The notes under the pieces: generated by a model | What the model was told of the DNA's origin: nothing | Databases searched by the model: none | What the model saw: only the letters and a program-made list of their open reading frames with translations | Position numbers and translations under genes: made by a program | From: a virus | Length of the DNA stretch: 64,000 nt | IMG/VR virus record: IMGVR_UViG_3300031788_000005 | Coordinates: 1-64,000 of that record | Strand: one strand, 5' to 3' | In this document: positions 2,832 through 63,933 of the stretch, piece after piece | Position numbering within the stretch: the first letter of the stretch is position 1 | How the letters are laid out: each line of letters begins with the position of its first letter

Positions 2832-2989
2832 GTGAGTACCTTATCAGCAACAAACAACAAAGTCAATTGGAGTGGTAGTTTTTTTAATCATATATTCACC
2901 TTTTATGATTGAAACCAAAGAACCAGCAAATGTAAAACAACAGCAAATATCACAGCAATAGCAAATACTATAATAACAGTAGCCATATA

Positions 2990-4926: not shown

Positions 4927-4956
4927 ATCACTACTATATCACAAGACGCGGATTAG

Positions 4957-5376: not shown

Positions 5377-5391
5377 AAGTTTTAATAATTA

Positions 5392-6169: not shown

Positions 6170-6904
6170 CTAAATACTAACAAGTGTTTCACGCATCCAA
6201 GCCATATTAATGGATTTTTTGACTCTAGCATCATCATTAGCCAACGGCAAAAGTTTCTTCGCTGGCACGGAAAATAAATAACTGCCATCCATAATAGTAT
6301 CTCTGTCGATTCCAAGTCTTTGTTTAACCCAGTTAAGTGTACCCTCAATACAATTTCCGGCACACCTAGAATCCTGCAAATTTACACGAGTAGAATTAAT
6401 TTCCCGCTCAAAAATTTTCTGGTGATATTGTTTTTCCAATTCCAATTTACGGGCATTTTTTTGTTTCTCCCAATTTTCCCGCAAATTAAATAGCATTCCC
6501 TTAACACCATTGAATAATACATCGTCAGAATTAAAATAAAAATTCTTTTTTGGATTAGATTTGCTTTGCAAAGAGACGCCCAAATTGTCAGCCGCAAAGA
6601 TAAAACCTTTGGGCGCAATTAAATGAAAATTTTCGACACCAATTTTGCCGACCAAAGCCGAACCATTATCAATAATCTCACCAAAGCTTTGGCAATAAGG
6701 AGAATATTCATATTTCGTGTATTGGCAACGACTTGAATATCTGCCACAATTATGGGTAAAATATCCTCCAATTGGTTTTATGGCATCATCTAAAGCCGCA
6801 GTTGGATTACGCCAATTTTTGATTCGAGGATAATTTTCTTGGCAAATTTCAAGAGTACGGTTTTTAATTTTTTGTCCTAATGGAATGCGGTATTTAAAAT
6901 TCAT
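6170..6904 (-). CDS. hypothetical protein, 244 aa (DSRCAGNCIEGT motif)
   Basis: Long ORF; start reassigned to the ATG 6 nt after the -10 box. Confidence 0.75.
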   Translation of the reverse strand: MNFKYRIPLGQKIKNRTLEICQENYPRIKNWRNPTAALDDAIKPIGGYFTHNCGRYSSRCQYTKYEYSPYCQSFGEIIDNGSALVGKIGVENFHLIAPKGFIFAADNLGVSLQSKSNPKKNFYFNSDDVLFNGVKGMLFNLRENWEKQKNARKLELEKQYHQKIFEREINSTRVNLQDSRCAGNCIEGTLNWVKQRLGIDRDTIMDGSYLFSVPAKKLLPLANDDARVKKSINMAWMRETLVSI

Positions 6905-6948
6905 ATGCAAAATATATCAGAGTATAATTAAAAAGTCAACTAAATATT

Positions 6949-7227
6949 TCAATCAGCATCTGCAATCAGGTGTTTTCTAAGGTTGATTTGCATCAGGCCA
7001 GACGGACGTTTGTCCACACTTTCTACTTGGTTAGGATGAAAACCAATACCCATTGTGCCGTGTCCAGAAGAACTTTCTCCCACGCGCAAATAAAATCGGT
7101 TATCATCATCTTCGGGAGCTTCCAACTGACCGTAGAAAGAGAAATGGATTCCATTGCTATCCGCGCAATCATCACCCGCGCGGACTTCAATGTATTGACC
7201 AACCAGAGGGGTTAATTTGTTTTTCAT
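6949..7227 (-). CDS. hypothetical protein
   Basis: ORF with own promoter. Confidence 0.6.
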   Translation of the reverse strand: MKNKLTPLVGQYIEVRAGDDCADSNGIHFSFYGQLEAPEDDDNRFYLRVGESSSGHGTMGIGFHPNQVESVDKRPSGLMQINLRKHLIADAD

Positions 7228-8450
7228 ATGAAGACTATAGCAGAATTAAAGGTAAAGTCAAGGCTTTACTCTCTTGCACCCATATTCTTCTTTGATTTGA
7301 TGATATCGTTCATGAGTAATACAATAAGCAGGTAAATCCACAAAACGCAATACACCAAGTCCCGCTTCATTCCGAACTAGATTCCAGATAAATAGCGTAT
7401 TTAAATTCGCGCCAATATCTTGATTGGTACGGAAGTAGTTATCCTCCACGTGCTTAATGAAATCGGGGTCTATGTTGCTATTTGTTGTAATCATACATTT
7501 GTCTGGTTTTTATACCAAGTGGTTCCTTCCAACCAAGGTTTTGTCATTTCGACTAATTCGCTACGCTTAAACAGCCCAAATGATTCTTGCGTAGTTGAAT
7601 CAATTACCGAAGTCATTGCGAAACCCAATTTAGAACCATGGTCTTTCTGCTTGTTCGCGAACTCTTCCACGCCAGCAATCGCCGCTTTAATTACTTGATG
7701 AAAGAATTGCGGGTCTTTTTTGCATTGACTAGCGACCAGAGATAGAATGATTTTTTCGTCCATATATTAATACCCTAACAGACTAATGCAAATGAGTCAA
7801 GTAAATTATCAAAGGGATTCTCCCGCTGCGTCTTCGGCAATAGCTTCAATTTCCCTTTCCAATTCAGTAATGCGCGTAAGTAGTTCGTTCAAAGCCCGTT
7901 CTTTTGCCTTGATACCAAGACCATCATGAGTTAGCAGGACTAATTTGATGTATTCAATGTCCATAAGTCAACCTAAAAGATTTGGTTTTCCACGACTCCA
8001 ATAAAAATTAGGCAAATATTTAAAATTAAACCACGCATTTAAATAACAGCCAAACAGAAAGAAAGTAAGTCTGGTATTGTAAAATGGATAGTTCTTGGGA
8101 TTCTCTTTGTGAATACCGATATAGGATACGCCTTCATGTTCAGCCCAAAAATAGGTTAGTTTCATTACTTAATGCGAGTTTGGATTACTTGAAACTGGTG
8201 AATTTCGACGGAGTTTTTCCAATCAGGCCCAAAATAATCTTCCATTGCTTTGATTAAGTCTCGTTCGCTGTCAAAGTCGAAGACATAATCCTTGCCATCC
8301 CAAAATGGCTGATAGCGTGGAACAGAAAGACTTTTACACCATGCGCGATGCATAACGTATCCAGTTGATTGGTTGATTTCCATATATTAGTACTTTATCA
8401 GAAGGATTAAGTTTTGTCAAGTTTTTCTTTTTTTTCTTTCATCATTTAAA

Positions 8451-8563
8451 GTTGGTTTTTGTCAATGTGTCAAAGCACCAGTATTTAGCCCCTACTGGAC
8501 GCGGCCCCAAGTATATTATGCGTCACGCTTCCATCTACTCACTAAATACGACCCATAACCAAC
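8451..8563 (-). ncRNA. putative structured ncRNA C
   Basis: Starts at the predicted +1 of a TTGACT promoter; ends pair (GTTGGTT/AACCAAC); internal GTATTTAG/CTAAATAC helix; no ORF. Confidence 0.5.
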
Positions 8564-8613
8564 AAAAGTACTCTAATAGAAAATTAACCAAAAGTCAAAT
8601 AAAAAATTTAAAA

Positions 8614-8720
8614 TGTCAGTGATGTTCAGGTCGCTCGCTTAGGTTTCTCATGTCAGTTACAAATGCGCTTCGCGCTCACCTAATGCCTACCCCTAACACG
8701 CCCTCAATGCATCACCAACA
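8614..8720 (-). ncRNA. putative structured ncRNA B
   Basis: Terminal helix TGTTGGTGATG/CATCACTGACA; internal TTAGGT/ACCTAA and GCGC-GAA-GCGC. Confidence 0.5.
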
Positions 8721-8729
8721 AAAATTAAC

Positions 8730-8802
8730 ATTGAAACGTTCACCGACTCGGCCAACCCTACGCTGTAAAGACGCTCGATTCGTCGCTTTTAACCGTTTCA
8801 AT
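8730..8802 (-). ncRNA. putative structured ncRNA A
   Basis: Directly after TTGACA-N17-TAATGT promoter; terminal helix ATTGAAACG/CGTTTCAAT. Confidence 0.5.
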
Positions 8803-8833
8803 AAAACAACATTATCAGAATCATCGCAGCTTG

Positions 8834-9109
8834 TCAACTATTTTTTAAAAAAGATTTTTGAATTTCCAACAAACAATTAAATGGTTTAACTGGTTTATTC
8901 ATATCAAAACGTCTAATAAAACGCCTAGCAGAACGAGGAAGTTCAAATACTCTTCCAGAATTCATAAAATTTACTTTCCCAACAAGGGTAACTACGGTCT
9001 CAGGAATAACTACATCTTTAATTGCCAAGGCAATAGGACACCTAGCAAAATCACCACGTTTACCTAATTTAATGTGTTTTTTCTGGACTTTAATGATTAC
9101 TTTATTCAT
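8834..9109 (-). CDS. hypothetical protein (CPIALA motif)
   Basis: ORF track. Confidence 0.6.
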   Translation of the reverse strand: MNKVIIKVQKKHIKLGKRGDFARCPIALAIKDVVIPETVVTLVGKVNFMNSGRVFELPRSARRFIRRFDMNKPVKPFNCLLEIQKSFLKNS

Positions 9110-9110
9110 A

Positions 9111-9482
9111 TTATTTATAAAATTTCGTGTGTCCTATCACCAAAAACGGCTTAAGATGTAATACTTTGGTAAAATACCAATTGTCTATATCTCCCCCGAA
9201 GTAACGACATCCGTGAGTTATGTTGGATGTTCTAGATTCATTCCACGCCCTATTAACCCGCTCGTAAATCCTACTACTTTCATACCTATGAGCGTTGGCA
9301 CCATACACACCTTGTAAACTTCCACGCTTCCTAATTACTTCACAAATAGCTACTTGAGCAAGATATGGTTCGCCGGAACTTTCTTCAACTACTGCATGAA
9401 TGATGGTAGCAGTATCCGGCAATTTTGCCTCACATTTACTAAATAAACTACACACTAGTACTATCAATACTATAACTCTCAT
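9111..9482 (-). CDS. SleB-like cell wall hydrolase (Hydrolase_2) with signal peptide
   Basis: EESSGEPYLAQVAICEVIRKR...IGHTKFYK; hydrophobic N-terminus. Confidence 0.75.
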   Translation of the reverse strand: MRVIVLIVLVCSLFSKCEAKLPDTATIIHAVVEESSGEPYLAQVAICEVIRKRGSLQGVYGANAHRYESSRIYERVNRAWNESRTSNITHGCRYFGGDIDNWYFTKVLHLKPFLVIGHTKFYK

Positions 9483-9516
9483 ATTTATAGTATTGTATTC
9501 TCTTTTTAGGAGAAAG

Positions 9517-9939
9517 TCAATGCTTAAATGCTTTTTCCCTAATTGTATTAATGGCGTTAGTTAGTTCATCAAAATTCAGCAACGGTATTTTCTGACAACC
9601 CACTGTGATAAAATCATTACCTTGCTTGTAGTTAGCTGAATATTCTTCATTTAAAGGAATATTAACTTCGAGTAAAATTGGCCCAGAATGAAGATTACTT
9701 ACGAATTCATAAAAAGAAACAGAATTTCGGTTATTATTATCTTTGGTAAAACAATTCCATTCATCTTCATAATAAAAGCCAACTTTTGGATATCTTATGT
9801 TTGGATTATCAATTGAAACTCCTCCGACTATTTTTTCTCCAGCCGCAATCAAGATATTAAGTACTGCCGATTTTTCTTGTTGCGTGGTGCATTCGATGAA
9901 GTAATTTTCACGGATTTTATTTAGGTATTTTTTATTCAT
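9517..9939 (-). CDS. 'VGCQ' paralog family member 2
   Basis: LNEEYSANY...ITVGCQKIP. Confidence 0.75.
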   Translation of the reverse strand: MNKKYLNKIRENYFIECTTQQEKSAVLNILIAAGEKIVGGVSIDNPNIRYPKVGFYYEDEWNCFTKDNNNRNSVSFYEFVSNLHSGPILLEVNIPLNEEYSANYKQGNDFITVGCQKIPLLNFDELTNAINTIREKAFKH

Positions 9940-9970
9940 ATTTTTAGATTATTAGATTGCGCGTTAAATA

Positions 9971-10381
9971 TCAAGACTTAATTGAATCAATCTCATTCAA
10001 GAATTTTCGGACAATAGCAAGAGGGATGGTTTGACATCCTACTGTAATATGTTCGTTGCCTTCAATATATTTCGCGGAATATTCGCTGTTAAGTTCAATT
10101 TCAACAACTTTTTTGACCTTTGGGACATGCACATCAATCATAAAGTCCCTAAATGAAATAACTTTGTCATTTAGCTTATCACGAAAAGCAGACCATTGAA
10201 AAATACCATCGTACTTAACGTAAGGATATTCTATAGTATCGTTATTTACATCTAGTAGTAAAACTGAACAGTTTTCTCCCGCTTCCTTAAGGATGGTTGC
10301 AATCGCACATTTTTCCCAATTGTCGGTAGTTTGGATAGCCCTATTTTCTTTCTTAATTTGTTGGATGTAGTCTTTATTCAT
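9971..10381 (-). CDS. 'VGCQ' paralog family member 3
   Basis: LNSEYSAKY...ITVGCQTIP. Confidence 0.75.
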   Translation of the reverse strand: MNKDYIQQIKKENRAIQTTDNWEKCAIATILKEAGENCSVLLLDVNNDTIEYPYVKYDGIFQWSAFRDKLNDKVISFRDFMIDVHVPKVKKVVEIELNSEYSAKYIEGNEHITVGCQTIPLAIVRKFLNEIDSIKS

Positions 10382-10412
10382 AAGTTGATAGTATATTAAT
10401 TCTCGTTAGATT

Positions 10413-10820
10413 TCAAGTGTTAATTTTATTAATTTCCATTATAAGATTTAAAAGAGTAAAAACGGGTATCTTTTGGCATCCCACAGTGATTTCAGAGTCG
10501 CCCTTATTGTAAATGGCGGTGTAGTCCTTGTTGAGTTTATATTCCAACATCTTTTTATTGGGGTTAAATAAGTTAGTAATAAATTCCGTAAAATTAATCA
10601 CAGGATTGCCCTTCTTACTAAAACCCCACTCCATCATTCCCGCAAAAACTTCGCCATTAAAATAAACGATTGGATATTCAATGTCTCCCTTTTGAGTTTC
10701 CGTCCCAACCTTTTCATTTAAACTTATTAGAATTCCAACAAGAGTCAATTTTTCTTCGTGAGTGGCGCACTTGATGCCAGTTTTAGATGATTTAATTGAT
10801 TCGAGATATGCTTTATTCAT
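10413..10820 (-). CDS. 'VGCQ' paralog family member 4
   Basis: LNKDYTAIY...ITVGCQKIP. Confidence 0.75.
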   Translation of the reverse strand: MNKAYLESIKSSKTGIKCATHEEKLTLVGILISLNEKVGTETQKGDIEYPIVYFNGEVFAGMMEWGFSKKGNPVINFTEFITNLFNPNKKMLEYKLNKDYTAIYNKGDSEITVGCQKIPVFTLLNLIMEINKINT

Positions 10821-53367: not shown

Positions 53368-53991
53368 AAAATAAAACCAATCGACGTGAGCCGCGTTTTT
53401 TACCGCATATGAGGCGGGAATAGGTCTAGGCTCCTGATGAAAAAACAGGGGAACTAACCCCACGTCTTCTAATTTTTTATTTCCGCGCTTGCTATTGATA
53501 TCTTTATTCACGAGCATTAAATTTTCAAAATTACTTTTGCCTCCATGGGAGCGGGCAATTTTGTGTTCTATGTTAAGTTTGGAATACGGCAGACGAACCC
53601 CGCTATAACCACAGATTCCTTTTTGTTTTTCAAAAAGCACTGTTTTCGTAGGGCGAAATTTCCGAAGAGGCATTTTTGAATAGGACGTAACAATAATCGA
53701 GGGCGACCTTATTTGTATTTTCGCGCCGTGAATAACTTGGTCTATTCCGTTACGGATAGGTACTTCTAACCATTCTTCAAAAGAACAAGCTTTAAAACCA
53801 ATAACATTATCAAAATCCCAAGACCCATCTTCTTTTTTGCCATATTCAATATTAATGGCTTTGGCAGCAGGACGTTCTCCATCCGAAGAACTATTCATTG
53901 CAACCACGGCTTGGCGCGGACTAGTTTGGCCAATAATTTGATACAACGCGTTCAAGACCAGTGTGCTGGATTTATTTAAAAAATCACTCAT
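53356..53991 (-). CDS. HNH endonuclease (McrA-like)
   Basis: LVLNA.Y...ICGYSG...NIEH.I.RSHGG..NFENL...N.K.GNK. Confidence 0.85.
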   Translation of the reverse strand: MSDFLNKSSTLVLNALYQIIGQTSPRQAVVAMNSSSDGERPAAKAINIEYGKKEDGSWDFDNVIGFKACSFEEWLEVPIRNGIDQVIHGAKIQIRSPSIIVTSYSKMPLRKFRPTKTVLFEKQKGICGYSGVRLPYSKLNIEHKIARSHGGKSNFENLMLVNKDINSKRGNKKLEDVGLVPLFFHQEPRPIPASYAVKNAAHVDWFYFLPK

Positions 53992-54036
53992 ATTCTTTTA
54001 ATAATAAATTATTTTTACCCATTTGTCAATACCAAG

Positions 54037-54043
54037 GTGTAAT
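54037..54043 (+). promoter_or_regulatory. putative late promoter GTGTAAT
   Basis: Same motif 7-11 nt upstream of starts at 54051, 58428, 60040, 54922 and 20494. Confidence 0.5.
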
Positions 54044-54050
54044 TATTTTC

Positions 54051-54860
54051 ATGAATATTCACGCTCACCCAACGAAGAAAATTGGCGTTTTGCCTCGTCC
54101 AGCACACGTTAAAACCTGTAAATTAGCCAATTATTTAAATATTGGGATGATTCCAACTCCCCCCGCATCTTATGATTGGGGTACGACCGCTCCAAATTCT
54201 CTTCAAATGTTCATGAATGATTCCATAGGTGACTGCGCGGTAGCAGCTTATCTTCATCACAAAGAAACAGTTTTGCAAACTGCTGGTTTGGGAGTTTCAT
54301 TTCTTGACCCTGTTGCTTTGGAAGTTTATGAATGGGCAACAGCCGATGAAAATGGCGGACAAGGATATAATCCAAAAGCAGGTTCTGGCGATAATAATCC
54401 AACCGATACTGGTTTAGTACTAGTGAGTTTTTTGGAAGATTTAAGGACTCGTGGATTGATTTATGCTCATGCCGAAGTTAATTTAAATAATGCCAAAGAA
54501 GTTGCAGCCGCGCAATATTTATTTGGTGGACTTTATGTGGGAGTTGCACTTCCTGTTTTTGTTCAAAATCTTCAGAATCTTTGGTATATTCCAACCACCG
54601 CTCAAAACTTAGGAGACCCAACAAAAGGAAGTTGGGGCGGGCATTGCATTTATACTCGTGGAATTACGCCAACGACTGGAAATACTATTTTAACGAGTTG
54701 GGGAGAAACTATTCAAGCAACTCCACAATGGATGCAAACTTATCAGGATGAGGCTCATATTATTGTTCATAAGCATTCAGCCGCAGCTTTTGATAAATTA
54801 GCTAGTGCTAATTTTGGAATTAATGACCTTATTGCCGACCTAAATGAAATAAAAAAATAA
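54051..54860 (+). CDS. papain-like cysteine peptidase
   Basis: ND.IGDC..A...GSWGGHC...TSWG. Confidence 0.7.
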   Translation: MNIHAHPTKKIGVLPRPAHVKTCKLANYLNIGMIPTPPASYDWGTTAPNSLQMFMNDSIGDCAVAAYLHHKETVLQTAGLGVSFLDPVALEVYEWATADENGGQGYNPKAGSGDNNPTDTGLVLVSFLEDLRTRGLIYAHAEVNLNNAKEVAAAQYLFGGLYVGVALPVFVQNLQNLWYIPTTAQNLGDPTKGSWGGHCIYTRGITPTTGNTILTSWGETIQATPQWMQTYQDEAHIIVHKHSAAAFDKLASANFGINDLIADLNEIKK

Positions 54861-54874: not shown

Positions 54875-54922
54875 TTAAATTTTATTATTTATTAAATTGG
54901 TAATAGAGTATATTCCAGTCAT
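54875..54922 (-). pseudogene. GIY-YIG endonuclease N-terminal relic
   Basis: MTGIYSITNLINNKI*VEIS: stop where the Y of YIG is expected. Confidence 0.6.
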
Positions 54923-54940
54923 ATACTATATTACACTGTT

Positions 54941-55182
54941 TTACGTTTTTTAGCCGATATTTTGTGTTAATCTGACATTTTTCTCACTAACTGGATGTGG
55001 CGATGTGTTAATAATCGCTGCCCAAACCCGCTCTCAATGGAAAACATTATCCTCAAGCTGTTTTGGTTGCATCTACCTTTTGGTACAAACGAGTTTTTAA
55101 GACTCTCCCATGGCTGTTTTGATGTATCGAACTTCCTCTAATATAGGACTTTACCCATATCAGCGTCAGAATATTAACGTAA
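54941..55182 (-). ncRNA. rnpB: RNase P RNA, minimal form
   Basis: P1 TTACGTT/AACGTAA; P2 TCTGAC/GTCAGA; P3 ATATGGG/CCTATAT; CR-I GAGGAAGTTCGATA and CR-V ACAAAATATCGGCT forming P4 with bulged U; TGCAAC; AGAAAAATG before P2 3' strand. Confidence 0.8.
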
Positions 55183-55188
55183 TAATTC

Positions 55189-55217
55189 AATTTACACCAT
55201 CCATCAAAATTTGTCAA
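55189..55217 (-). promoter_or_regulatory. promoter of RNase P RNA
   Basis: TTGACA-N17-TAAATT; predicted +1 coincides with the P1 5' strand; overlaps a GTGTAAA motif. Confidence 0.65.
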
Positions 55218-55564
55218 TTATTATCTTCAATATTATCTCCCCACCAAAAAACATCCGATTTGCTACCAAAGAAATTAGCTCCACCAAGTTCTATACTTAA
55301 TTGCAAATTAGTATTATAGGTAAAATTAAAATAAGGAGGCATTTCATCTACTTGTAATGTTACAAAAATACACTTCTTGGGGAGTTTATATGATGCAGAA
55401 TTAATCGTTATTGGCGTTTGAATCATGCCGTGATTTAATGCTACGCGGCAGGTCTCGCGGAGACCATCCAAATATCCCTGCTCATAAGTATGTTTCGGGT
55501 CAACGGTTGTTTTGCTACATCCCGCAAATAGCAGGACGGCAATTAGTAGTATTATATTTTTCAT
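55214..55564 (-). CDS. putative lipoprotein
   Basis: MKNIILLIAVLLFAGC lipobox. Confidence 0.65.
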   Translation of the reverse strand: MKNIILLIAVLLFAGCSKTTVDPKHTYEQGYLDGLRETCRVALNHGMIQTPITINSASYKLPKKCIFVTLQVDEMPPYFNFTYNTNLQLSIELGGANFFGSKSDVFWWGDNIEDNN

Positions 55565-56205
55565 ATTTATTTTTTAATCATGAATTTTTTAATGCGTTTT
55601 AAAAAAGCATCCAGATTTTCATTTTCTTTTACAATGTGGTCGTGGTCGTAATATGCTCCGTCGCCCTTGGTATTAAAATCTAATTCTTGGACTTCACAAG
55701 GAATATTCGAAAATTTCAGGAATTCTTTTATACCTTCAAATTTGTAAGAGAGTTTAGTATGATAATCGTCTCCTTCATCAAACTTTTTTCCGTCAACAAA
55801 AATGATGTAATACGCATCATATGACACATCCAATGTTACTAATGTTAATTTCATAAAATTATTATTTTCAAGGAATTTTTAAATCGAATTTAGGTACTTT
55901 TACGTTTTTATCAGGCTTTAATTTTTGTTGGTGTATTTTGGATAATTTTTCTCTCAATTCATAAACCTCTAATGCCAAACCAATTACCAGATTATCTCCC
56001 ACTAAATCACGCCATTTTTCGCCATACCTTAAGGCTTCACCACCGCCATTTTTCCAATGTTGGACAGTATATTTTCCATCGCAGATAGTCACTTCCCAAT
56101 CAATTTCTTTTTCGGTAACGGGTTCCCATGGACTTGGACTGACTATACATCCACATTTAAAAGTCTCTGGATTAACAATTTGTTTACAACGTTTGCATTT
56201 CCATT

Positions 56206-56385
56206 TCATTTGTCAATTATCGTTTCACCATCTTGAGCATAGTTCCATCCTTTTGGGAGATTTTTGCCAGTTTCTTCCATAAAACGCTCGTTCATGGCAT
56301 CAATAATATCTGATTCGGCGGGGCCGAAGTCGGCATGATGACGAAACCATTCTAAGTATTCTAAATTAGTTGCTCTTTTTCTCAT
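56206..56385 (-). CDS. small protein, paralog of 61838-61987
   Basis: Read manually: ATNLEYLEWFRHHADFGPA...ETGKNLPKGW. Confidence 0.65.
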   Translation of the reverse strand: MRKRATNLEYLEWFRHHADFGPAESDIIDAMNERFMEETGKNLPKGWNYAQDGETIIDK

Positions 56386-57290
56386 AATTATTTATCAAAT
56401 CCCAATTCAAGACTATATTCTGCTTCTTCAAGGTAATTTTTCTCTTTTTCCAAAAAGTTTTCCGCTCGTATGACTTCTTCCTTTAATCGGGAATATTCTT
56501 TTTCTAAATTAGCCTTTTCTTGCTCAACTATGGCGTAGGATTTTTTATATCCTTCTTCAAGATTTGTTTTAGCTTCACGGAGTTTAGATTCGGCGTCTTT
56601 TACGTCGATTTTAGCTCGGACAACTCTGGCTTGTTTGTCGGTCATGATTTCCTCCAATTAGGATACTCTGGATACTCTGATTGACTTCCTAGAGTGCTAT
56701 TACCCATTAGTCGGGTAGGGCATAATCGGCGACTACAACATTGCCATTTTTGTTCCATAGTTTTCAAAATTAGCGTTGCATTGTGGGCAGCAGCCTTGTA
56801 TTGCAGGGCATCCATTTGGATGAATCGGACAATTTCCGTCACCATCGGTATCTAGTTCGCATCCTTTCATAATCATAAATAAGGGTTTTCCTCTTCGCAG
56901 ATTGGGCAGATTTTCCAATTATTTGCAGTTAAACCACAGGGGGCTTCGTCAGTTTTAAATGACCATCCTCCCGCTTCGGGAAATGATTCGCGACCGCAAA
57001 AAAAAACTTCCTCTCCAGCAGCACGACTCCAAAAATGGATATGTTTACACCATTTAGGCTTATTGCCGGATAAGTCTTGTTTAATTAATTGATTAATTGT
57101 CATTTATAACTTTCCCCCGCTTCTTGGGTTGGTTGACCGCATGTTGGACAGAGTAACGCGGAATTAACATCACGTTCCGATTCATAAGAATAATCGCATC
57201 TAAAACACTTCCAAATTATCCTATGTTCATGATTTCTTTCCCACTGGTATTGAAAATCATCATCCCTACCATAATCTTTATAATCGTAAC

Positions 57291-57725
57291 TCATATATTA
57301 AATTCCTCAATTTCCCCATCAGGAAATACAATCATACCTTTTTTCTTTACTTTTTTAGAAAATCGAACTGTACTCCACGTTCCAGACCTTAACTGTTCTT
57401 CTTTTTCTTTCGGGGCCGCAATTAAGAAATCACAATTATTAACAATATCATGATTTCTTTCAAGGTAGGGTTTCGGAATTAGTTGTATATCATACTTACA
57501 GAAGGCTCTATGAGCCTTAATATTGGGTACATGCCCAAATGTTTTGATTTTTTGAAAATTTTTATTTGCATTTGCTAAGGTAATTAGGTCGTAGAATTCG
57601 CGGTCGCTTCCAGAGCAATCACCGCTATGACTTTCTGTTATATAATGTTCGGCGATAAAAAGGGCAACTTTTAGTAATTGCATGGGTGTCATTCCATCGC
57701 GGGTTCCAGTAAATCCTAGTTTCAT
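57291..57725 (-). CDS. SLOG-superfamily (DprA/LOG-like) protein
   Basis: GFTGTR.GMT...GD..G.D...RNHDIV..CD.LIA.P...RSGTWSTVR. Confidence 0.75.
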   Translation of the reverse strand: MKLGFTGTRDGMTPMQLLKVALFIAEHYITESHSGDCSGSDREFYDLITLANANKNFQKIKTFGHVPNIKAHRAFCKYDIQLIPKPYLERNHDIVNNCDFLIAAPKEKEEQLRSGTWSTVRFSKKVKKKGMIVFPDGEIEEFNI

Positions 57726-58052
57726 AATTATTTTTTTAAAAAAGCAGAAATTGTTTGTTCCTGATTCTTATTTCTAAAAGAAATACTTGGTCGCCATGGC
57801 AAACAGCCCATCGTCCAAAGTGTCGGCAGATGCTCTTTTTTAGTTACCTCAGAAATGTTTGAAATACCTATCTGTTTTGATTCAAGGGCTTGTGAAACTA
57901 TTTCACCTTTATTTGCGCGAAAAGCAGACTCAACACATTTATATGGGTCTTCGTCATAAAGGTTTTCTACTACAATTTCGGTTTTAATGGTGATTTTCGC
58001 TCGAATCAGTTTGGACTTCATATCCTTATGATTACATATCCTTCAAAAAATG

Positions 58053-58352
58053 TCAAGCGCAAACATCAATTGAAGAGACCCATATGGTGTGCTGCAATAA
58101 ATATGTACATGAAATTTCCCATACCATAATATCCCCTTGGTAAAGTTCTTGGCCCTTGTCGTCGTATTCGCCAAAAAATTGTTGAACTACCGCTGGTACA
58201 AAATTAAAATCCCAAGGGGGAATCCAAATTTTATTATTGTCCCAGATAATCATATTGTTCACATGATGAACATAAAAATGCCCCGAAGAGTCGGGGTATC
58301 GGTAAGATTGGTCTTGTTCACTAAATAACCTTATTTTTTTGATATTTTTCAT
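58053..58352 (-). CDS. YopX-like protein, possibly degenerate
   Basis: QQFFGEYDDKGQELYQGDI. Confidence 0.45.
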   Translation of the reverse strand: MKNIKKIRLFSEQDQSYRYPDSSGHFYVHHVNNMIIWDNNKIWIPPWDFNFVPAVVQQFFGEYDDKGQELYQGDIMVWEISCTYLLQHTIWVSSIDVCA

Positions 58353-60136: not shown

Positions 60137-60228
60137 TGGCGGTTCGCAGATATCACGCTTACCAGACGGGTTTTAACCGTCCCAATAGCTTTCCAAGCTA
60201 CGCTGGTGCCTCGACCAGTTTACGAACC
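60137..60228 (-). tRNA. tRNA-Ser(GGA)
   Basis: Cloverleaf, long variable arm, G73, CCA; T-loop AGCGTGA. Confidence 0.8.
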
Positions 60229-60232
60229 AAAA

Positions 60233-60326
60233 TGGCGGATAAGTAAAGTGCCGACCTCTATCCGTGGTATTAGCACGAATCACCTGCTTTCAAAGCAGAG
60301 GCCATCGCCGGATGGCTAACCTATCC
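60233..60326 (-). tRNA. tRNA-Ser(TGA)
   Basis: CTGC-TTTGAAA-GCAG, long variable arm, GCCA; T-loop GTCGGCA. Confidence 0.85.
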
Positions 60327-60858
60327 AAATTATAAAAAATTTATTTTATCTAAATTTATTTTTGGATTAATAATAGTTTCCCCAATTTCCGTAGTCGCTA
60401 GAAATTTCCTAACTTCTTGGATTTTACTTTTATTACCCTCCCCATATTCAATCAACGCCTGCATGGTTTGATGTTCACAAATAAATTTTACATCGGAGGG
60501 AATATATTTTTCCCATAGTTTTTTAAATTGTTTATATTTCATAATATTCTAATTCAGCTATTCTTCTGGCCGCTTTTTTATCTACTCGCAAACAACGCCT
60601 TCTATGGGTTGTGTCTTTAGATTTTCGCCTTCCAGATATGCCTTTTAAAAAAGATTTACTGCTATACGGTTTCATAATATTATTGGGTAAATTTTAGATT
60701 TGTCTTTCTGCAACTCCTTCCACATCAAAACCTGCTGACAAGCATGAATTCCATCGCGGAAATAACGTTGGTGGTCGGGATGGGTTTGTGGCAAAAGGAT
60801 AAATTTATCCCACGCTTCGACAAGACATTGCATTATTTCTTTTTCCTCATTCATAAAT

Positions 60859-60931
60859 TGGTGAATCCTTGATGGCTCACACACCACAAGCGGTTTGCCG
60901 CAGTCGTCTTTCTCATTGCAGACGAGGACTC
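60859..60931 (-). ncRNA. tRNA-like RNA without a recognisable anticodon loop
   Basis: GAGTCCT/AGGATTC-ACCA acceptor; CGTCT/AGACG, GCGG-CAAA-CCGC and TGG/CCA hairpins. Confidence 0.5.
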
Positions 60932-60937
60932 GTAAAT

Positions 60938-61024
60938 TGGCGGATAATTACCCTCCTGCCGAGTAAACCTTTCGGTTCGCACCGTTTTCGAAACGGGCCT
61001 AGAAACTTTTCTAGTTAATTATCC
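60938..61024 (-). tRNA. tRNA-Ser(CGA)
   Basis: CCGT-TTCGAAA-ACGG; variable arm ACC-GAAA-GGT; GCCA; T-loop GGCAGGA. Confidence 0.8.
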
Positions 61025-61470
61025 AAATCATTGGTCTCCATCCATTAAAGTTTGTAACGTCAAAGCTGCTAGATTTGCTTTGGTAGGCCGTTCAATACCG
61101 CAGATGGGACACATTTTCCAAGATTTTGGAATATCCCTGTGTAATGAGTCCATCCACCAAGAATAGCGCCTATTTCCATCAATATATTCATGGAGATATT
61201 TAATATGGTCACACCAAGTTTTCATAAAGCCGCTTGCCAGAATGTATCGACTGCCCCAATCATAGTCCCTGATAAAACCCAAAAATCACCTTCTGCTCGT
61301 GGATATGGATTAGGGATAATCTCTACTTCATGTTCTCCCGCTGACAATGGCACTATGATATCTCGCGGTAGACGCATTTTAGATGCATCAATTAAATTTA
61401 ATATTCTAGTCGTAATTACTTTCATTAATTTAAGCTTAACAAATTTTTCATTCAAAGTCAAGAAAAAAAA

Positions 61471-61545
61471 TGGAGGCTAATCAGGGATTTGTTTCGCCCT
61501 GTCTTGTAATTTACGAAATTACTGTGCATACAACACCTAAAAGCC
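61471..61545 (-). tRNA. tRNA-Thr(CGT), atypical
   Basis: GTAAT-TTCGTAA-ATTAC; enlarged T-loop; U.U mismatches in acceptor; TCCA. Confidence 0.6.
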
Positions 61546-61550
61546 GAAAG

Positions 61551-61625
61551 TGGAGGACAAGCCGGAATTTACATCCGATTCCCAATTTTACCAAAATTGA
61601 ATTTTATTACATAAACTACAAGTCC
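61551..61625 (-). tRNA. tRNA-Thr(GGT), atypical
   Basis: CAATT-TTGGTAA-AATTG; U.U mismatches in acceptor; TCCA. Confidence 0.7.
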
Positions 61626-61639
61626 AAAAAATCATAAAT

Positions 61640-61718
61640 TGGTGCTGCGGACAGGAGTTGAACCTGCATTATTCCAATTATGCGCTTCCTCTTTAGGAAA
61701 GAGTGCCATTACCGCAGC
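61640..61718 (-). tRNA. D-arm-less tRNA-Arg(CCT)-like
   Basis: GCTGCGG/CCGCAGC-ACCA; canonical GGTTCAACTCC T-arm; CTCT-TTCCTAA-AGAG. Confidence 0.6.
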
Positions 61719-61726
61719 GTAAAATC

Positions 61727-61834
61727 GTGCTGACTGTCTGTTGAGTTGGCAATCCCAATTAACGACCCGACAGCTAGGTGGCTCACTAAACGTGGTGTTC
61801 GGTAGCGAATCGAACGCGCCTTTGATATCAGCAC
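61727..61834 (-). ncRNA. permuted tRNA-like (Y RNA/YrlA-like) RNA
   Basis: Ends pair (GTGCTGA/TCAGCAC); GCG-TTCGATT-CGC T-arm precedes a loop-closed acceptor-like stem ACCGAAC-ACCAC-GTTTAGT. Confidence 0.45.
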
Positions 61835-61837
61835 AAA

Positions 61838-61987
61838 TTATTCGTCGTCCCAACCTTGAGGGACTTTCTTGCCCGTTTCCTTTTCAAACTGGCGGTGCAT
61901 TTCGTAACGCACATCACCATCGGCAGGGCCAAAATCAGCGTTGATACGAAACCATTTAAGGTATTCAAGTTCTGTTGCTTCTTCCAT
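61838..61987 (-). CDS. small protein, paralog of 56206-56385
   Basis: Read manually: ATELEYLKWFRINADFGPA...ETGKKVPQGW; own promoter. Confidence 0.65.
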   Translation of the reverse strand: MEEATELEYLKWFRINADFGPADGDVRYEMHRQFEKETGKKVPQGWDDE

Positions 61988-62028
61988 ACTCAAACATTAT
62001 CATCAATGTCGGATTATGTCAAGCGAAA

Positions 62029-62119
62029 TGGAGGAAGGAGCAAATCCCGCCTTTGACACCCCTTTCAGGGTGCGATGTGTTTAGCAAACACTCCTAGAAC
62101 CTCGTCTAGTTCACCTTCC
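62029..62119 (-). tRNA. tRNA-Ser(GCT)
   Basis: GTGT-TTGCTAA-ACAC; long variable arm CACCC/GGGTG; CCA; T-loop GGCGGGA. Confidence 0.75.
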
Positions 62120-62513
62120 ATTGTTCAAAGTTTTCTGCTAATTTTACATCTGGATGTCTTTTTGAAGCAGAAAAACTAAGATAAATTTTACTTTTACCGC
62201 GAGCCAAATGCAACGGAACAAAATAGACCTTATCATTTGCTGGATAATAAATGGCAAAATAATCTATTTTGCCTTCGTAATCTTTGCTTACTTGCTGTCC
62301 CTTAATTTTGTAAGTAGATTTTCCATCAAATTCGATGCTGTTATTTACTTTTCGTCCTGTTTTTGTTTGGATGCGAATTAAATTATTATCGTCTTGAACG
62401 ATTAAATCTACACCCGTATTTTCTCCAAATGGGAGAAATGCCGTTTTCCCTAATTCCAAAACTTTAGCTAAAACTTTGGCTTCAGAAATACTTCCTTTGC
62501 TTTTTGTGTTCAT
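62106..62513 (-). CDS. PD-(D/E)XK endonuclease, group I intron-associated/homing type
   Basis: KG.ISEAKV...PFGEN...DLIV......RIQTKT...Y...IDYFAIY.P....YFVP. Confidence 0.85.
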   Translation of the reverse strand: MNTKSKGSISEAKVLAKVLELGKTAFLPFGENTGVDLIVQDDNNLIRIQTKTGRKVNNSIEFDGKSTYKIKGQQVSKDYEGKIDYFAIYYPANDKVYFVPLHLARGKSKIYLSFSASKRHPDVKLAENFEQWKVN

Positions 62514-62553
62514 GTCTATCTAGTAATACACTAGACACGTTTCATTGGGAAAT

Positions 62554-62638
62554 TGGTCGCAATGGTGGGACTTCCACCCACAAAGGTCGGAGATTTTAAG
62601 TTTCCATGCTCTTGTATTCGCTGTCAACCCACATTGCG
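62554..62638 (-). tRNA. tRNA-Leu(TAA)-like, atypical
   Basis: CGCAATG/CATTGCG-ACCA; GGAAA-CTTAAAA-TCTCC; T-arm GTGGG-TGGAAGT-CCCAC. Confidence 0.6.
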
Positions 62639-62645
62639 TTGAAAT

Positions 62646-62721
62646 TGGTGTGTTCTTTCCCACCGTCAGCAGCCAAGGGAGCGGCTTTACCAGCCATCCT
62701 CGGTATCGTTTTGTGCGAACG
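62646..62721 (-). ncRNA. degenerate tRNA-sized CCA-ended element
   Basis: Ends in ACCA; GTTC/GAAC; GGCT/AGCC and CCC/GGG hairpins; sits between tRNAs. Confidence 0.3.
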
Positions 62722-62726
62722 TATAT

Positions 62727-62803
62727 TGGTGCGCCCCCTCGGTAATGCTCCGAGTCCTATCGGGTAAGAGCCGATTGCTTGCCACTATTAGAGCTTGGAA
62801 CGC
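62727..62803 (-). tRNA. tRNA-Lys(CTT)
   Basis: ATCGG-CTCTTAC-CCGAT; T-loop AGCATTA; ACCA. Confidence 0.85.
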
Positions 62804-62809
62804 AGTAAA

Positions 62810-62885
62810 TGGTTGTCGTGACAGGTGCCGACCCTGCTAAATTCTCCATGTAAAGGAGATAATCATGCCGATGATACTCACGACA
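62810..62885 (-). tRNA. tRNA-Val(TAC)
   Basis: TCTCC-TTTACAT-GGAGA; T-loop GTCGGCA; ACCA. Confidence 0.8.
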
Positions 62886-62891
62886 GTAAAA

Positions 62892-62966
62892 TGGATGCCT
62901 GTGATGGTGCTGCCCCATCGCCTCGACTTTCAGAGAGTCGCGAACTACTGTTATTCAGAACAGGCA
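62892..62966 (-). tRNA. tRNA-Gln(CTG)
   Basis: CGACT-CTCTGAA-AGTCG; U1-A72; T-loop GGCAGCA. Confidence 0.85.
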
Positions 62967-63433
62967 ATAAAATTACTTTTCTTGTAATGATTCAGAATGA
63001 CCGCATTGTGGACATTTCCAACATCTAACAAGTTTTCCTTCTGAATAATGAGTGTATTCTGTTTTAATATTTTCATCAACAAAATCAACAGACTCACCCA
63101 ATTTTAAATTAATTTTGCAGTATTTACATTTTTTATTTTTCATAAATTTAAAATCTCAACAAAAAGGTTAATTCTTCGCTGAGAATCCAAGGTATATTAC
63201 TACCCTTGAAAACCCCTATGGTGCACTTTAACCATTCCCCTTGCAAAAAGAACAAGCGTTAAGGGTACTAAATCTCTCTAATCCACTCCGTAACTGGAAT
63301 AAATTTTTCACATTTACAATTAGGACATTTTTTAAAAACCTCGTCTAAATTAAAAATCTCAGAACATCCTATGCATTTTTTGAAATTTTGCAATCTTGGT
63401 TTAATTTTGTAATAATCTTTGATTTTCATAAAA

Positions 63434-63508
63434 TGGAGCCAAGCCTCGGTAATGCTCCGAGTTCTCTCGATTACAAGTCGAGTGCATCACTTTGTATGCT
63501 TGCAAGGC
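63434..63508 (-). tRNA. tRNA-Thr(TGT)
   Basis: CTCGA-CTTGTAA-TCGAG; T-loop AGCATTA; TCCA. Confidence 0.85.
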
Positions 63509-63513
63509 GAAAT

Positions 63514-63589
63514 TGGTGCATCCTGTCGGAACTGCCCCGACATCCCATTCCTTAAGAGGGAAGGCTCTATCTCGCTGAGTTAAGGATGC
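63514..63589 (-). tRNA. tRNA-Lys(CTT), second copy
   Basis: TTCC-CTCTTAA-GGAA; T-loop GGCAGTT; ACCA. Confidence 0.85.
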
Positions 63590-63858
63590 AAAATTATTAA
63601 TATATTATTTAATTTCTAAATTATCTAGAACTTCTATTAGTTTAACATCCAAAATTTGGGCATCATCTTCTGTTAGAGAGCGGTCATAAATCAAACCTTT
63701 CGTAGGAGAACCGTATCTCCAATCTTTCCAGTATTTTTTACCATCTCTATCTTGCCAAATTGTTGTTCCACCGTCACGAATTGTATTAATTTTCTTAACC
63801 AAAATTTCTTGCATATTTTTATTATGAATGAAGTTTAGATTTTTGTCAAGGAGAAAAA

Positions 63859-63933
63859 TGGTCCCAGTAGAAGAAATTGCATCTTTAACTCCGAATGACT
63901 TATGAAATCACCGTTCCACTCTGGATTACTGGG
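63859..63933 (-). tRNA. tRNA-Met or Ile2(CAT)
   Basis: TGAT-TTCATAA-GTCA; CCCAGTA/TACTGGG-ACCA. Confidence 0.7.

Follow-up and report, generated by a model that had tools for sequence, protein, structure and literature searches.

Location and architecture of the RNA

The window, that is, the whole stretch of 64,000 nt analyzed in this work, belongs to an 83-kb record of an uncultured peat phage that is estimated to be 75% complete. A 242-nt structured RNA with a P1/P2/P3/P4 arrangement as in RNase P RNA lies on its minus strand at 55182-54941, so that RNA position n corresponds to window coordinate 55183-n. The intergenic gap that holds this RNA is 353 nt long and is bordered by an ORF on the plus strand (53961-54860) and an ORF on the minus strand (55214-55564). 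The individual elements are listed in Table 1. The two-part core pattern occurred once in the window and in none of 100 shuffles. The minimum-free-energy fold of the RNA alone was unremarkable (z = -1.8), which is expected because the RNA has two pseudoknots. A mitochondrial origin, considered in view of a reduced RNase P and odd tRNAs, was ruled out by the rIIA/rIIB, HNH, and phage-family ORFs and by the IMG/VR virus record.

Table 1. Predicted elements of the RNase P-like RNA and its promoter in window coordinates.
Feature	Position	Strand	Remarks
Sigma-70-like promoter: TTGACA (55217-55212), 17-nt spacer, TAAATT (55194-55189)	55189..55217	-	10/12 positions match; would place +1 near 55182
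Whole predicted RNase P-like RNA (P1 5' to P1 3' strand)	54941..55182	-	family model R1 match 54938-55185
P1 5' strand UUACGUU, RNA 1-7	55176..55182	-	pairs with AACGUAA
P2 5' strand UCUGAC, RNA 13-18	55165..55170	-	6/6 pairs change on both sides, about 91% of cells paired
P3 hairpin, RNA 20-45, 10 bp, loop UAAAGU	55138..55163	-	compensatory changes vs L004; P3 base 97% paired
CR-I GAGGAAGUUCGAUA: J3/4 and P4 5' strand (55133-55125), bulged U53 at 55130	55125..55138	-	P4 99.7% of cells paired
P5 5' strand CAUC, RNA 59-62	55121..55124	-	P5 99% paired
P6 pseudoknot 5' strand AAACA, in J5/7	55115..55119	-	5/5 pairs change on both sides
Specificity-domain remnant: P7-like helix, GA, hairpin 78-92, junction GUUUGUA	55074..55114	-	layout recurs in folds of each of 38 members
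P5 3' strand GAUG, RNA 110-113, then J5/15 C-A-A (55069-55067)	55070..55073	-	P5 99% paired
P15 5' strand CCA (55066-55064) and L15 5' side AAACA	55059..55066	-	P15 100% paired, 3/3 pairs covary
P16 (GCUU/GAGC), internal loop, P17 (GGA/UCC)	55030..55058	-	both covary; aligned to P16/17 of Rfam model in L030
P6 pseudoknot 3' strand UGUUU, in P17 loop	55042..55046	-	5/5 pairs change on both sides
L15 3' side GGGUU (RNA 154-158, includes GGU) and P15 3' strand UGG	55022..55029	-	GGU invariant
Extra hairpin between P15 and P18 position, GCGAU/AUCGC, 9-nt loop UAUUAACAC	55000..55018	-	78% paired, 5/5 pairs covary
P18-position hairpin CAC/GUG, 9-nt loop, RNA 184-198	54985..54999	-	79% paired, 3/3 pairs covary
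CR-IV / J18/2 AGAAAAAU, directly 5' of P2 3' strand	54977..54984	-	AGAUAAAUG near-invariant in family
P2 3' strand GUCAGA, RNA 207-212	54971..54976	-	6/6 pairs change on both sides
CR-V ACAAAAUAUCGGCU: J2/4 and P4 3' strand (54959-54952)	54952..54965	-	P4 covariation
P1 3' strand AACGUAA, RNA 236-242	54941..54947	-	pairs with UUACGUU

As read from the sequence, the catalytic domain is complete and of the bacterial type A, with P1-P5, the bulged U of P4, CR-I and CR-V, the AA of J5/15, P15 with the GGU of L15, P16/17 together with P6, a hairpin at the P18 position, and CR-IV. The strings and pairings named in the original prediction for P1, P2, P3, and P4 with its bulged U were found on the minus strand. 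P1, located in the family members by an anchored search, had at least 6 bp in 37/37 members, and its mean length was 9.3 bp, compared with 4.7 bp when the flanks of different members were paired. The P3 hairpin varies in length among family members, the shortest having 3 bp and a GNRA loop and the longest about 70 nt, and in the window its last pair takes the G of GAGGAAG. P4 consists of 8 bp with one bulged U after the third pair (A50 G51 U52, bulged U53, C54 G55 A56 U57 A58 with U224-U231). Its three distal pairs covary (e.g., CG 23, AU 12, and GC 2), and the pair G51-C230 is changed to C-G in the phage LR745206.1. P5, the pairing of which had been described as not clean, is a clean helix of 4 bp (CAUC 59-62 with GAUG 110-113). 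Within the same member 3.95 of its 4 pairs are formed, compared with 2.65 across members, and 16 distinct pairings occur. The P6 pseudoknot is a hallmark of type A. It was paired in 94% of cells on the unfitted MAFFT alignment, and RNAalifold picked P4 and P6 unprompted. The earlier description of this RNA had overlooked the P6 pseudoknot.

Positions A115, A116, G155, G156, and U157 are invariant in the 38 sequences. In bacterial RNase P, the GGU of L15 pairs with the 3'-CCA of the tRNA. The original prediction had regarded both this GGU and P18 as absent, but the GGU is present in GGGUU (RNA 154-158), just 5' of the 3-bp P15, which is paired in all cells and covaries, and a hairpin occupies the P18 position (RNA 184-198). 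In many relatives this hairpin has 4-5 bp and a GNRA cap (GAAA, GCAA, or GGAA). Similarly, the motif assigned to a shrunken specificity domain (UGCAACCAAAAC...UGAGGA) turned out to be the P5 3' strand, J5/15 (AA), P15, L15, and P16 of the catalytic domain. The first pair of P16 was paired in 89.5% of cells, its other three pairs in 56%, and P17 in 80%. The extra hairpin preceding the P18 position carries two compensatory changes relative to the homolog L004 and is missing in about one-third of the family members. CR-IV was aligned to the matching block of the Rfam model in the member L030.

In cellular enzymes, the specificity domain stacks on the T-loop/D-loop elbow of the tRNA. A full domain of this kind (P7-P14 with CR-II/CR-III) is not found in the phage RNA, which has a P7-like helix and one hairpin only. 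The P7-like helix (UGG 73-75 with CCA 100-102 and an outer GCC/GGU) was paired in 87.6% of cells, and 4/5 of its pairs covary. Between the P5 strands there are 47 nt, compared with about 158 nt in genuine type A RNA, so that the elbow-reading module of type A (P8-P14 with CR-II/CR-III) is represented by a stub. The absence of P12, P13/14, and P19 had been foreseen correctly, as P10-P14 and P19 are all missing. The Rfam alignment of L030 also skips the specificity domain, with three local-end gaps that correspond to 117 model positions (14 + 14 + 89) and hold 63 sequence residues instead.

Homologous family and covariation

The search with the core pattern gave one homolog among viral contigs and 50 loci in metagenome contigs, of which about 38 are distinct homologs. 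The same pattern also picked up genuine RNase P RNAs of Micrarchaeota (89 bits, above the curated cut-off), and among 185,579 cellular genomes it matched no copy of the phage type. Eight GC-rich, coding-like matches of the pattern were rejected as false positives (L014, L015, L036, L042, L050, L056, L057, and L058). A second pattern, composed of the P3 loop and CR-I, gave no homolog beyond L004, and its match L005 was a chance match in GC-rich, coding-like sequence.

When the 38 sequences were aligned by MAFFT without fitting, 81% of cells were paired compared with 61.7% after shuffling, and the covariation score was 0.455 compared with 0.156. None of 500 shuffles reached as high a value, and slid controls stayed at or below 0.12. 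The model-based alignment gave 88.7% paired cells (66.3% shuffled) and a score of 0.512 (0.159 shuffled), again with 0/500 shuffles as high, and 44/51 pairs change on both sides. Covariation supports P2, P3, P4, P5, P7, P15, and the P6 pseudoknot. The compensatory changes among homologs that the original prediction looked to were thus observed.

The family model R1, from the building of which the window and its two nearest relatives were left out, scores the window RNA over its full length at 137.8 bits (E 1.3e-42), and this is the only copy in the 83-kb record. The phage is very distant from known phages, with an rIIA at most 35% identical. BLAST searches of 50,697 phage records with the window RNA and with the 10 kb around it were without a match, as was a search of phages with the L016 RNA. 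No relatives were found among viral contigs through the flanking proteins and rIIA. A cultured carrier of the family is Stenotrophomonas phage DLP6, in which the gene is unannotated and lies at about 105,771-106,022 of KU682439.2. The family is large, natural, and widespread among phages.

Comparison with known RNase P RNAs

No RNase P match of the window RNA was obtained against all 4227 Rfam families, including RF02357, either at the gathering score or, for a segment of 551 nt, with E values as high as 10 allowed. The search of the whole record with the RF00010 and RF00011 models was also without a match. The DLP6 member was matched by the bacterial type A model RF00010 with 54.7 bits (E 3.3e-17), which is below the cut-off of 100, and L030 by the archaeal model RF00373 with 36.6 bits (E 2.7e-9), below the cut-off of 84. 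The L030 alignment maps P1-P5, J5/15, P15/L15, P16/17, CR-IV, P2', and CR-V. The comparison with Rfam covariance models, put forward with the original prediction, was therefore negative for the window RNA itself and positive for these two members, with significant scores under the curated cut-offs. We do not take the negative result as a refutation because the models charge heavily for the missing specificity domain and because cmscan also missed the DLP6 copy, which a separate model search scored at 54.7 bits. In the reciprocal direction, R1 gave no match at any of three loci with genuine type A rnpB, even when the search filters were switched off, so reciprocal detection failed there. It detects Micrarchaeota RNase P RNAs as the top match in their genomes (E 1.5e-5).

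Each block of the phage RNA was compared with its counterpart in three genuine type A RNAs (253-308 bits). The order of the catalytic-domain helices and conserved blocks is the same as in bacterial type A RNase P RNA (rnpB/M1-type; RF00010, clan CL00002). The genuine arrangement GGAGC-AA-GACC-AAAUAG ... GGGUAA-GGUC has its counterpart in GAUGC-AA-CCA-AAACAG ... GGGUU-UGG of the phage RNA, where the genuine RNAs read AAAUAG on the 5' side of L15 and GGGUAA or GGGUAG on its 3' side. Furthermore, the genuine AGAUGAAUGA stands against AGAAAAAUG in the phage, and the CR-V block ACAGAAUCCGGCUUA against ACAAAAUAUCGGCUAA. CR-IV of the genuine RNAs is read as AGAUGAAUGA, AGAGGAAUGA, and AGAUAGAUGA, and the phage AGAAAAAU agrees with the form AG-N4-AU and matches their AGAUGAAU / AGAGGAAU. 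The P4 strands have the same length, and J3/4 is GGAAGUU in the phage and GGAAAGU in genuine type A, with equal length and pairing kept. Unlike type A rnpB (367-424 nt), the phage RNA is only 242 nt long, has an additional hairpin between P15 and P18, is phage-encoded, and in the window copy is missed by the Rfam model.

Catalytic-domain-only RNase P RNAs from engineering and reduced organellar ones demonstrate that a P4-centred domain can still be RNase P, although it is usually more protein-dependent. Those are laboratory constructs or organelle genes, whereas the phage RNA is a natural and widespread lineage. Another reduced RNase P RNA is type T of Thermoproteaceae archaea (RF02357) (PMC13462272). 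Like the phage RNA, it is natural, about 200 nt long, and has lost most of the specificity domain while the catalytic domain is kept. However, type T is a housekeeping gene of cells, its catalytic domain is of the archaeal style, and its protein partners are archaeal, whereas the phage RNA has the type A hallmarks P6, P15/L15 GGU, and P18. The window RNA is thus not a member of type T, as it lacks an RF02357 match and its catalytic domain has bacterial type A features. The short RNase P RNAs of Micrarchaeota (DPANN) have the exact CR-I and CR-V strings in common with the phage family and a similar length (about 270 nt), but their interior differs, their score of 89 bits exceeds the cut-off of the archaeal Rfam model, and they belong to cells and not to tRNA arrays on phage contigs. 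The only viral RNase P-like RNA that we found in the literature is that of camelpox, which did not process pre-tRNA in vitro (PMC3001073). It belongs to a eukaryotic virus and has no link to viral tRNA genes, whereas in the phage family every catalytic-domain element is under covariation. We found no publication describing a phage RNase P RNA family.

Promoter, presence in RNA libraries, and tRNA context

The promoter TTGACA-N17-TAAATT of the original prediction exists at 55217-55189, although such sites are not enriched in the region, with 3 found compared with 3.6 expected from shuffled sequence. By eye, TTGACA-N16/17-TAnAnT-like sites are also seen upstream of the homologs L004, L028, and L029. 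A terminator scan 3' of the RNA found none. A 100%-identical contig that lies inside the RNA, from 54953/4 to 55156-55172, occurs in each of three peat metatranscriptome runs, which come from three studies. Being assemblies, these contigs indicate that the sequence occurs in RNA libraries but give neither its level nor its strand or exact ends. They end 10-13 nt inside both predicted RNA ends and leave the P1 strands uncovered. The coincidence of the contig ends at 54953/54954 in three studies is a weak hint of a discrete transcript. In X23 and X24 the RNA contigs leave the flanking ORFs uncovered, and holes in contig cover prove nothing.

Nearly all homologs lie within or adjoin dense tRNA arrays (111 tRNA matches in the 20 loci scanned), and in most relatives the gene is flanked by ordinary tRNAs scoring 50-70 bits. 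The window gene is solitary, with about 5 kb to the nearest tRNA-like gene. ARAGORN called 11 tRNAs in the record, and all of them (11/11) encode CCA, the partner of the L15 GGU. Many of the tRNA-like genes of this phage have non-standard T loops and were missed by ARAGORN and Rfam. A gene for the protein subunit, rnpA, was found neither in the 75%-complete record nor in the complete DLP6 genome. In the huge phage LR745206.1, an rnpA gene (TIGR00188, 43.8 bits, above the cut-off) occurs together with a family member that scores 161 bits with R1.

Proposed function and alternative explanations

The analysis shows that the RNA is structured and conserved, that it is homologous to RNase P RNA, that it is associated with tRNA arrays, and that it is present in RNA libraries. 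The central claim of the original prediction, a phage-encoded RNase P RNA of reduced size, is backed by the homologs, the covariation, the family model, and the significant Rfam scores of family members. The best explanation is that the phage has here a gene for a miniature RNase P RNA, derived from the type A design of bacteria, which is most likely active, uses bacterial RnpA, and matures phage tRNAs. Activity is not to be assumed, because the RNA lacks the specificity domain, which is a defining part of the bacterial RNase P RNA of cells; we infer the catalysis, the protein partner, and the substrates as follows. The RNA would be transcribed from its own sigma-70-type promoter and would fold into an active site centred on P4. 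It would most probably bind the RnpA protein of the host, which is the likely partner because no rnpA was found in the 83-kb fragment. Together, RNA and RnpA may cut the 5' leaders of precursor tRNAs, chiefly of those encoded in the large tRNA array of the phage itself. The substrate would be recognized via the acceptor stem, the pairing of L15 GGU with the genomically encoded 3'-CCA, and the grip of the protein on the leader, and not via the elbow.

The RNA could also be an active ribozyme with altered targets. Its main substrates would then be RNAs other than tRNAs or RNAs that resemble tRNAs (polycistronic transcripts of the phage, or mRNAs or tRNA-like RNAs of the host), or it would serve only the unusual tRNAs of the phage and have no part in general tRNA maturation. 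In catalytic-domain-only constructs of bacterial RNase P, the lost elbow recognition relaxes the choice of substrate, and this speaks for such a role, together with the non-standard T loops of many phage tRNA-like genes and the isolated position of the window gene, about 5 kb from tRNA-like genes and with its own promoter. However, most relatives have their gene among ordinary tRNAs of 50-70 bits, and the kept L15 GGU together with CCA-encoding tRNAs points to classical acceptor-end recognition, so we consider this explanation unlikely. Another role would be that of a non-catalytic decoy that keeps the RnpA-binding surface and soaks up host RnpA or otherwise disturbs host RNase P, by which RNA processing is shifted toward the phage. 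Such a role was discussed for the camelpox RNA, and the failure of that RNA to process pre-tRNA in vitro would be in line with it (PMC3001073). The loss of the elbow-reading domain is consistent with a decoy, and so is the record without rnpA, in which the RNA must meet the host protein. On the other hand, the elements of catalysis and docking are invariant or covary (P4 bulged U, J3/4, J2/4, J5/15 AA, L15 GGU, and P6), dozens of phages have the gene linked to tRNA arrays, and LR745206.1 carries its own rnpA, which would be senseless for a protein sponge. A decoy is therefore very improbable.

A chance resemblance, by which the locus would encode a structured phage RNA without relation to RNase P, or no RNA at all, could be suggested by the missing Rfam match of the window and by the unremarkable fold energy. 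It is opposed by the absence of the core pattern from all 100 shuffles, by eleven covarying helices, two pseudoknots among them, in the exact type A order, and by the matches of members to RF00010 (E 3e-17) and RF00373 (E 3e-9), and we attach almost no probability to it. The preferred explanation, maturation of phage tRNAs by a miniature RNase P, could be extended to an elbow-blind enzyme that is half of a private supply line of phage tRNAs, reading only the acceptor stem and CCA and maturing tRNAs with remodelled T loops independently of the host RNase P RNA. This extension is tentative and rather unlikely. The remodelled T loops escape standard detectors, and host enzymes or defence nucleases may overlook such tRNAs as well.

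Significance

RNase P RNA is generally considered a housekeeping ribozyme that is restricted to cells and organelles. A phage lineage of RNase P RNA would add a ribozyme to the translation-related genes of phages. It would show that strong selection in nature maintains a catalytic domain of bacterial type from which the specificity domain is almost gone, which bears on substrate recognition by RNase P and on models of its modular evolution. The lineage would also explain unannotated gaps in phage tRNA arrays that are missed by current (Rfam) annotation, and it would provide the engineering of RNase P with compact scaffolds of natural origin. The question is directly testable because a cultured carrier exists in Stenotrophomonas phage DLP6. 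The window copy is notable as a solitary gene with its own promoter, found in three metatranscriptomes, in a phage whose tRNAs have unusual elbows. If the private supply line were true, it would mean that the translation of the phage is shielded from host shut-off or tRNA-directed defence.

Homologs and covariation

The window RNA is conserved and covaries; its type A catalytic domain is architecturally complete, and its specificity domain is vestigial. No RNase P match to the window copy was returned by the Rfam scan of the window at the gathering score, by a scan of the 551 nt around the RNA at E up to 10, or by RF00010 (bacterial type A) and RF00011 on the whole record, an outcome that the original prediction had itself counted against the idea, and we therefore turned to comparative evidence. 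Flanking proteins and BLAST yielded no relatives. The first DNA pattern on the core (GAGGAAGTTCG, gap, ATCGGCTAA), run on viral contigs, gave one homolog, L004, and the pairwise comparison revealed compensatory substitutions in helices P1, P2 and P3 and in one inner hairpin. With three distal P4 pairs left free, the looser pattern retrieved 50 metagenome loci, and about 38 distinct sequences among them are clearly homologous to the window RNA; five loci are short archaeal RNase P RNAs, and another five were rejected as probable false positives (GC-rich, coding-like). In prokaryotes (one genome per species, 185,579 species), this pattern returned no copy of the phage type.

The proposed structure was scored on A2, a MAFFT alignment (38 sequences, fitted to no structure), where 81.0% of cells were paired vs 61.7% in shuffles and the covariation score was 0.455 vs 0.156, with none of 500 shuffles as high; sliding the 3' partners by 1-3 columns gave at most 0.12. 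During model building, the consensus chosen blind by RNAalifold comprised P4 and P6. On the model-based alignment A4, fitted only to these two, 88.7% of cells were paired (66.3% shuffled), the score was 0.512 (0.159 shuffled), and 44 of 51 pairs changed on both sides; pairing reached 87.6% in P7, 93% in the base of the stub hairpin, 80% in P17 and 78-79% in the two 3' hairpins. P1 is unreadable by alignment columns and was tested by pairing each member's own flanks; all 37 members formed 6 bp or more, on average 9.3 bp, vs 4.7 bp with the flanks of different members combined. P5 had been called not clean and proves well paired, with 3.95 of 4 positions pairing within members vs 2.65 across members, through 16 different sequence pairs.

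Anatomy of the RNA

Features of the window RNA on the minus strand (window coordinate = 55183 - n; position 1 = 55182), matching blocks of L070, a genuine type A RNA, and support on A2
Feature	Position	Window RNA	L070	A2
P1	1-7 / 236-242	UUACGUU / AACGUAA		
P2	13-18 / 207-212	UCUGAC / GUCAGA		6/6 pairs change on both sides
P2 to P3 start		UGACGCUGAUA...	AAUCGCUCUCC...	
P3	20-45	hairpin of 10 bp		
CR-I		UAGAGGAAGUUCGAUAC	GAGAGGAAAGUCCGGAC	
P4	A50 G51 U52 (U53) C54 G55 A56 U57 A58 / U224-U231	8 pairs, 1 bulged U		99.7% paired; three free pairs covary (CG 23, AU 11, GC 3; GC 17, CG 9, UA 8, ...)
P5				98.9% paired
P6 pseudoknot				94.2% paired; 5/5 pairs covary
Specificity-domain remnant	69-109	short P7-like helix, dinucleotide GA, one variable hairpin, GUU-N3-A junction		
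P5', J5/15, P15, L15		GAUGC-AA-CCA-AAACAG	GGAGC-AA-GACC-AAAUAG	
P15				100% paired; 3/3 pairs covary
L15 3' side, P15'		GGGUU-UGG	GGGUAA-GGUC	
Additional hairpin between P15 and P18	165-183	loop UAUUAACAC		
Hairpin at P18 position	184-198			
CR-IV		GAGAAAAAUG	AAGAUGAAUGA	
CR-V		ACAAAAUAUCGGCUAA	ACAGAAUCCGGCUUA	
Metatranscriptome contigs	window 54953-55169; 54953-55172; 54954-55156			

All strings quoted in the original prediction are present on the minus strand, including P1, P2, P3 and P4 with its bulged U, and the catalytic domain is complete, beyond mere P1-P4. The L15 GGU, read as apparently missing, is there as G155, G156 and U157, invariant in 38 sequences, and the P18 position, also taken to be empty, is occupied by a hairpin that in many relatives has 4-5 bp and a GAAA, GCAA or GGAA cap; both 3' hairpins are missing in about one third of family members. 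The specificity domain is indeed reduced, but the string read as its shrunken form is really J5/15, P15, L15 and P16, and the layout of the true remnant is repeated in all family members. P10-P14 and the CR-II/CR-III module are missing, so that the proposed absence of P12 and P13/14 holds, and the P5 strands lie 47 nt apart vs about 158 nt in L070.

Relation to RNase P RNA

A family covariance model (R1), built from 33 members, with the window RNA and the two relatives closest to it left out, matched the window RNA over the full length of the model at 137.8 bits (E 1.3e-42) as the sole copy in the 83-kb record, which makes the window RNA a family member. The copy in the Stenotrophomonas phage DLP6 matched RF00010 over the full model at 54.7 bits (E 3.3e-17), below the curated cut-off, and was missed by cmscan with filters on a 268-nt stretch. 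The homolog L030 matched archaeal RF00373 at 36.6 bits (E 2.7e-9), also below the curated cut-off, with P1, P2, P3, CR-I, P5, GCAA (J5/15), P15, AAAUAG (L15), P16/17, GGGUUGAGGC, UAGAUAAAU (CR-IV), P2' and GAACAAAAUGGCGGCUAC (CR-V) aligned to the corresponding blocks of the model; the specificity domain of the model became three local-end gaps of 117 positions (14 + 14 + 89), filled by 63 residues. The blocks were compared with those of three genuine type A RNAs, which score 253-308 bits vs RF00010, and the search pattern also picked up genuine archaeal RNase P RNAs. These four lines (R1 membership, curated-model matches, type A blocks and archaeal retrieval) tie the family to RNase P. R1 did not match the three bacterial rnpB genes even with filters off; it consists mostly of unpaired positions and cannot span a 110-nt insertion, so we read this miss as a limit of the model and not as counter-evidence.

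Among the archaeal RNAs, L045 exceeded the RF00373 cut-off (89 bits), and the pattern search of prokaryote genomes found its group also in Micrarchaeota. The RNase P RNAs of these DPANN archaea (L059 6133-6362; L060, L045, L025) have only about 270 nt, and their CR-I and CR-V strings are identical to those of the phage family; L025 falls just under the archaeal Rfam cut-off (78 bits).

Genomic setting and tRNA arrays

The family is carried by phages and associated with tRNA arrays. Twenty homolog loci scanned held 111 tRNAs and no other Rfam match, and therefore the RNA resides within or adjoining phage-type tRNA arrays; several copies begin only a few bases from a tRNA 3' end. Two GenBank phage records contain unannotated members. 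The copy of the cultured, T4-like DLP6 (KU682439.2, 105,771-106,022; L062 1299-1550) sits directly 5' of tRNA-Arg with a hypothetical CDS on its other side, and the DLP6 paper makes no mention of RNase P. The copy of LR745206.1, an uncultured 635-kb phage, lies at 502,058-502,279 (L063/L077), with a core P4 pair changed from G-C to C-G.

The window RNA occupies a 353-nt intergenic gap between a plus-strand ORF (53961-54860, phrog_19005) and a minus-strand ORF (55214-55564). The predicted TTGACA-N17-TAAATT promoter is present as a site ending 7 nt before RNA position 1, but a site scan of the region gave no enrichment of promoter-like sites around the RNA; by eye, TTGACA-N16/17-TAnAnT sites precede the family copies in L004, L028 and L029. 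An AU-rich hairpin (AGUAUAU...AUAUACU, 54900-54925, minus strand), about 20 nt past the P1 3' strand, lacks a U tract and was not called by the terminator scan; it may be the end of the primary transcript. The source record, an IMG/VR virus record of estimated 75% completeness, encodes rIIA, rIIB and an HNH endonuclease and is very remote from sequenced phages (rIIA identity at most 35%); rnpA was not found in its 83 kb. Only 11 ORFs of at least 250 aa occur in the 64 kb of the window, and short minus-strand ORFs are packed tightly in long runs (e.g. 55214-58352).

The tRNAs of the record lie upstream of the window RNA on the same strand. ARAGORN detected 11 at 64.5-74.4 kb (L061, the record beyond the window, 566-10438 = record 64566-74438, minus), all encoding CCA; in seven, position 55 of the T loop is G (loop UGCGAGU in five), several are 84-91 nt long, and Rfam scores are modest (31-56 bits). 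About a dozen further minus-strand genes at 60137-63933 (73-94 nt) show a perfectly paired 7-bp acceptor stem and then NCCA; their T loops are non-standard (e.g. GGCAGUU, GUCGGCA, AGCAUUA). ARAGORN at default settings detected none of these, and the Rfam tRNA model only one (61643-61718, 30.2 bits). A raiA motif match (RF03072) also lies inside the array (L061 6222-6519, record 70222-70519, minus strand; 56.7 bits, E 1.3e-11), significant but under the cut-off of 101.3.

Presence in RNA libraries

The window RNA is present in RNA libraries. A single contig, 100% identical and inside the window RNA, came from each of three peat metatranscriptome runs (three studies); the contigs are assembled and are therefore evidence of presence in RNA libraries only. 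Their common end at 54953/54954 hints weakly at a discrete RNA, whose mature form may or may not include the P1 strands. The window DNA was found in many peat metagenomes, and one DNA run spans the whole 1.6 kb around the RNA. Run X22 also gave a separate 176-nt contig (54733-54908) adjoining the RNA gene, which spans the 3' end of the plus-strand ORF 53961-54860 plus 48 nt beyond.

Proposed function

We infer that the window RNA is probably an active RNase P RNA that partners bacterial RnpA and trims pre-tRNA 5' leaders while ignoring the elbow. Chance resemblance is scarcely credible: the two-part core pattern, found once in the window, is absent from all 100 shuffles. The sole viral precedent that we found is the inactive RNase P-like RNA of camelpox (PMC3001073), and a role of the window RNA as a decoy for RnpA, set beside its complete catalytic domain, appears improbable. 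An active ribozyme that has shifted to other substrates, or that serves only odd phage tRNAs, is somewhat easier to envisage next to the unusual T loops of this record, and is still unlikely.

As an active RNase P RNA, the molecule would join bacterial RnpA, in this phage that of the host, and together they would remove pre-tRNA 5' leaders; recognition would use the acceptor stem and, via the L15 GGU, the encoded CCA, with the elbow ignored. RNase P RNA itself is known; a natural phage-borne, type A-derived lineage almost without a specificity domain is not, and a full-text literature search turned up no account of an RNase P RNA encoded by a phage. LR745206.1 also encodes an rnpA of 115 aa (L076 1465-1812, about 76,408-76,755) with the motif KRAVDRNRIKR (PF00825, 49 bits; TIGR00188, 43.8 bits, over the cut-off), and RF00010 had no match elsewhere in its genome. 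Both subunits are therefore present in at least one phage, and this rnpA and the mini RNA may form a complete phage RNase P holoenzyme.
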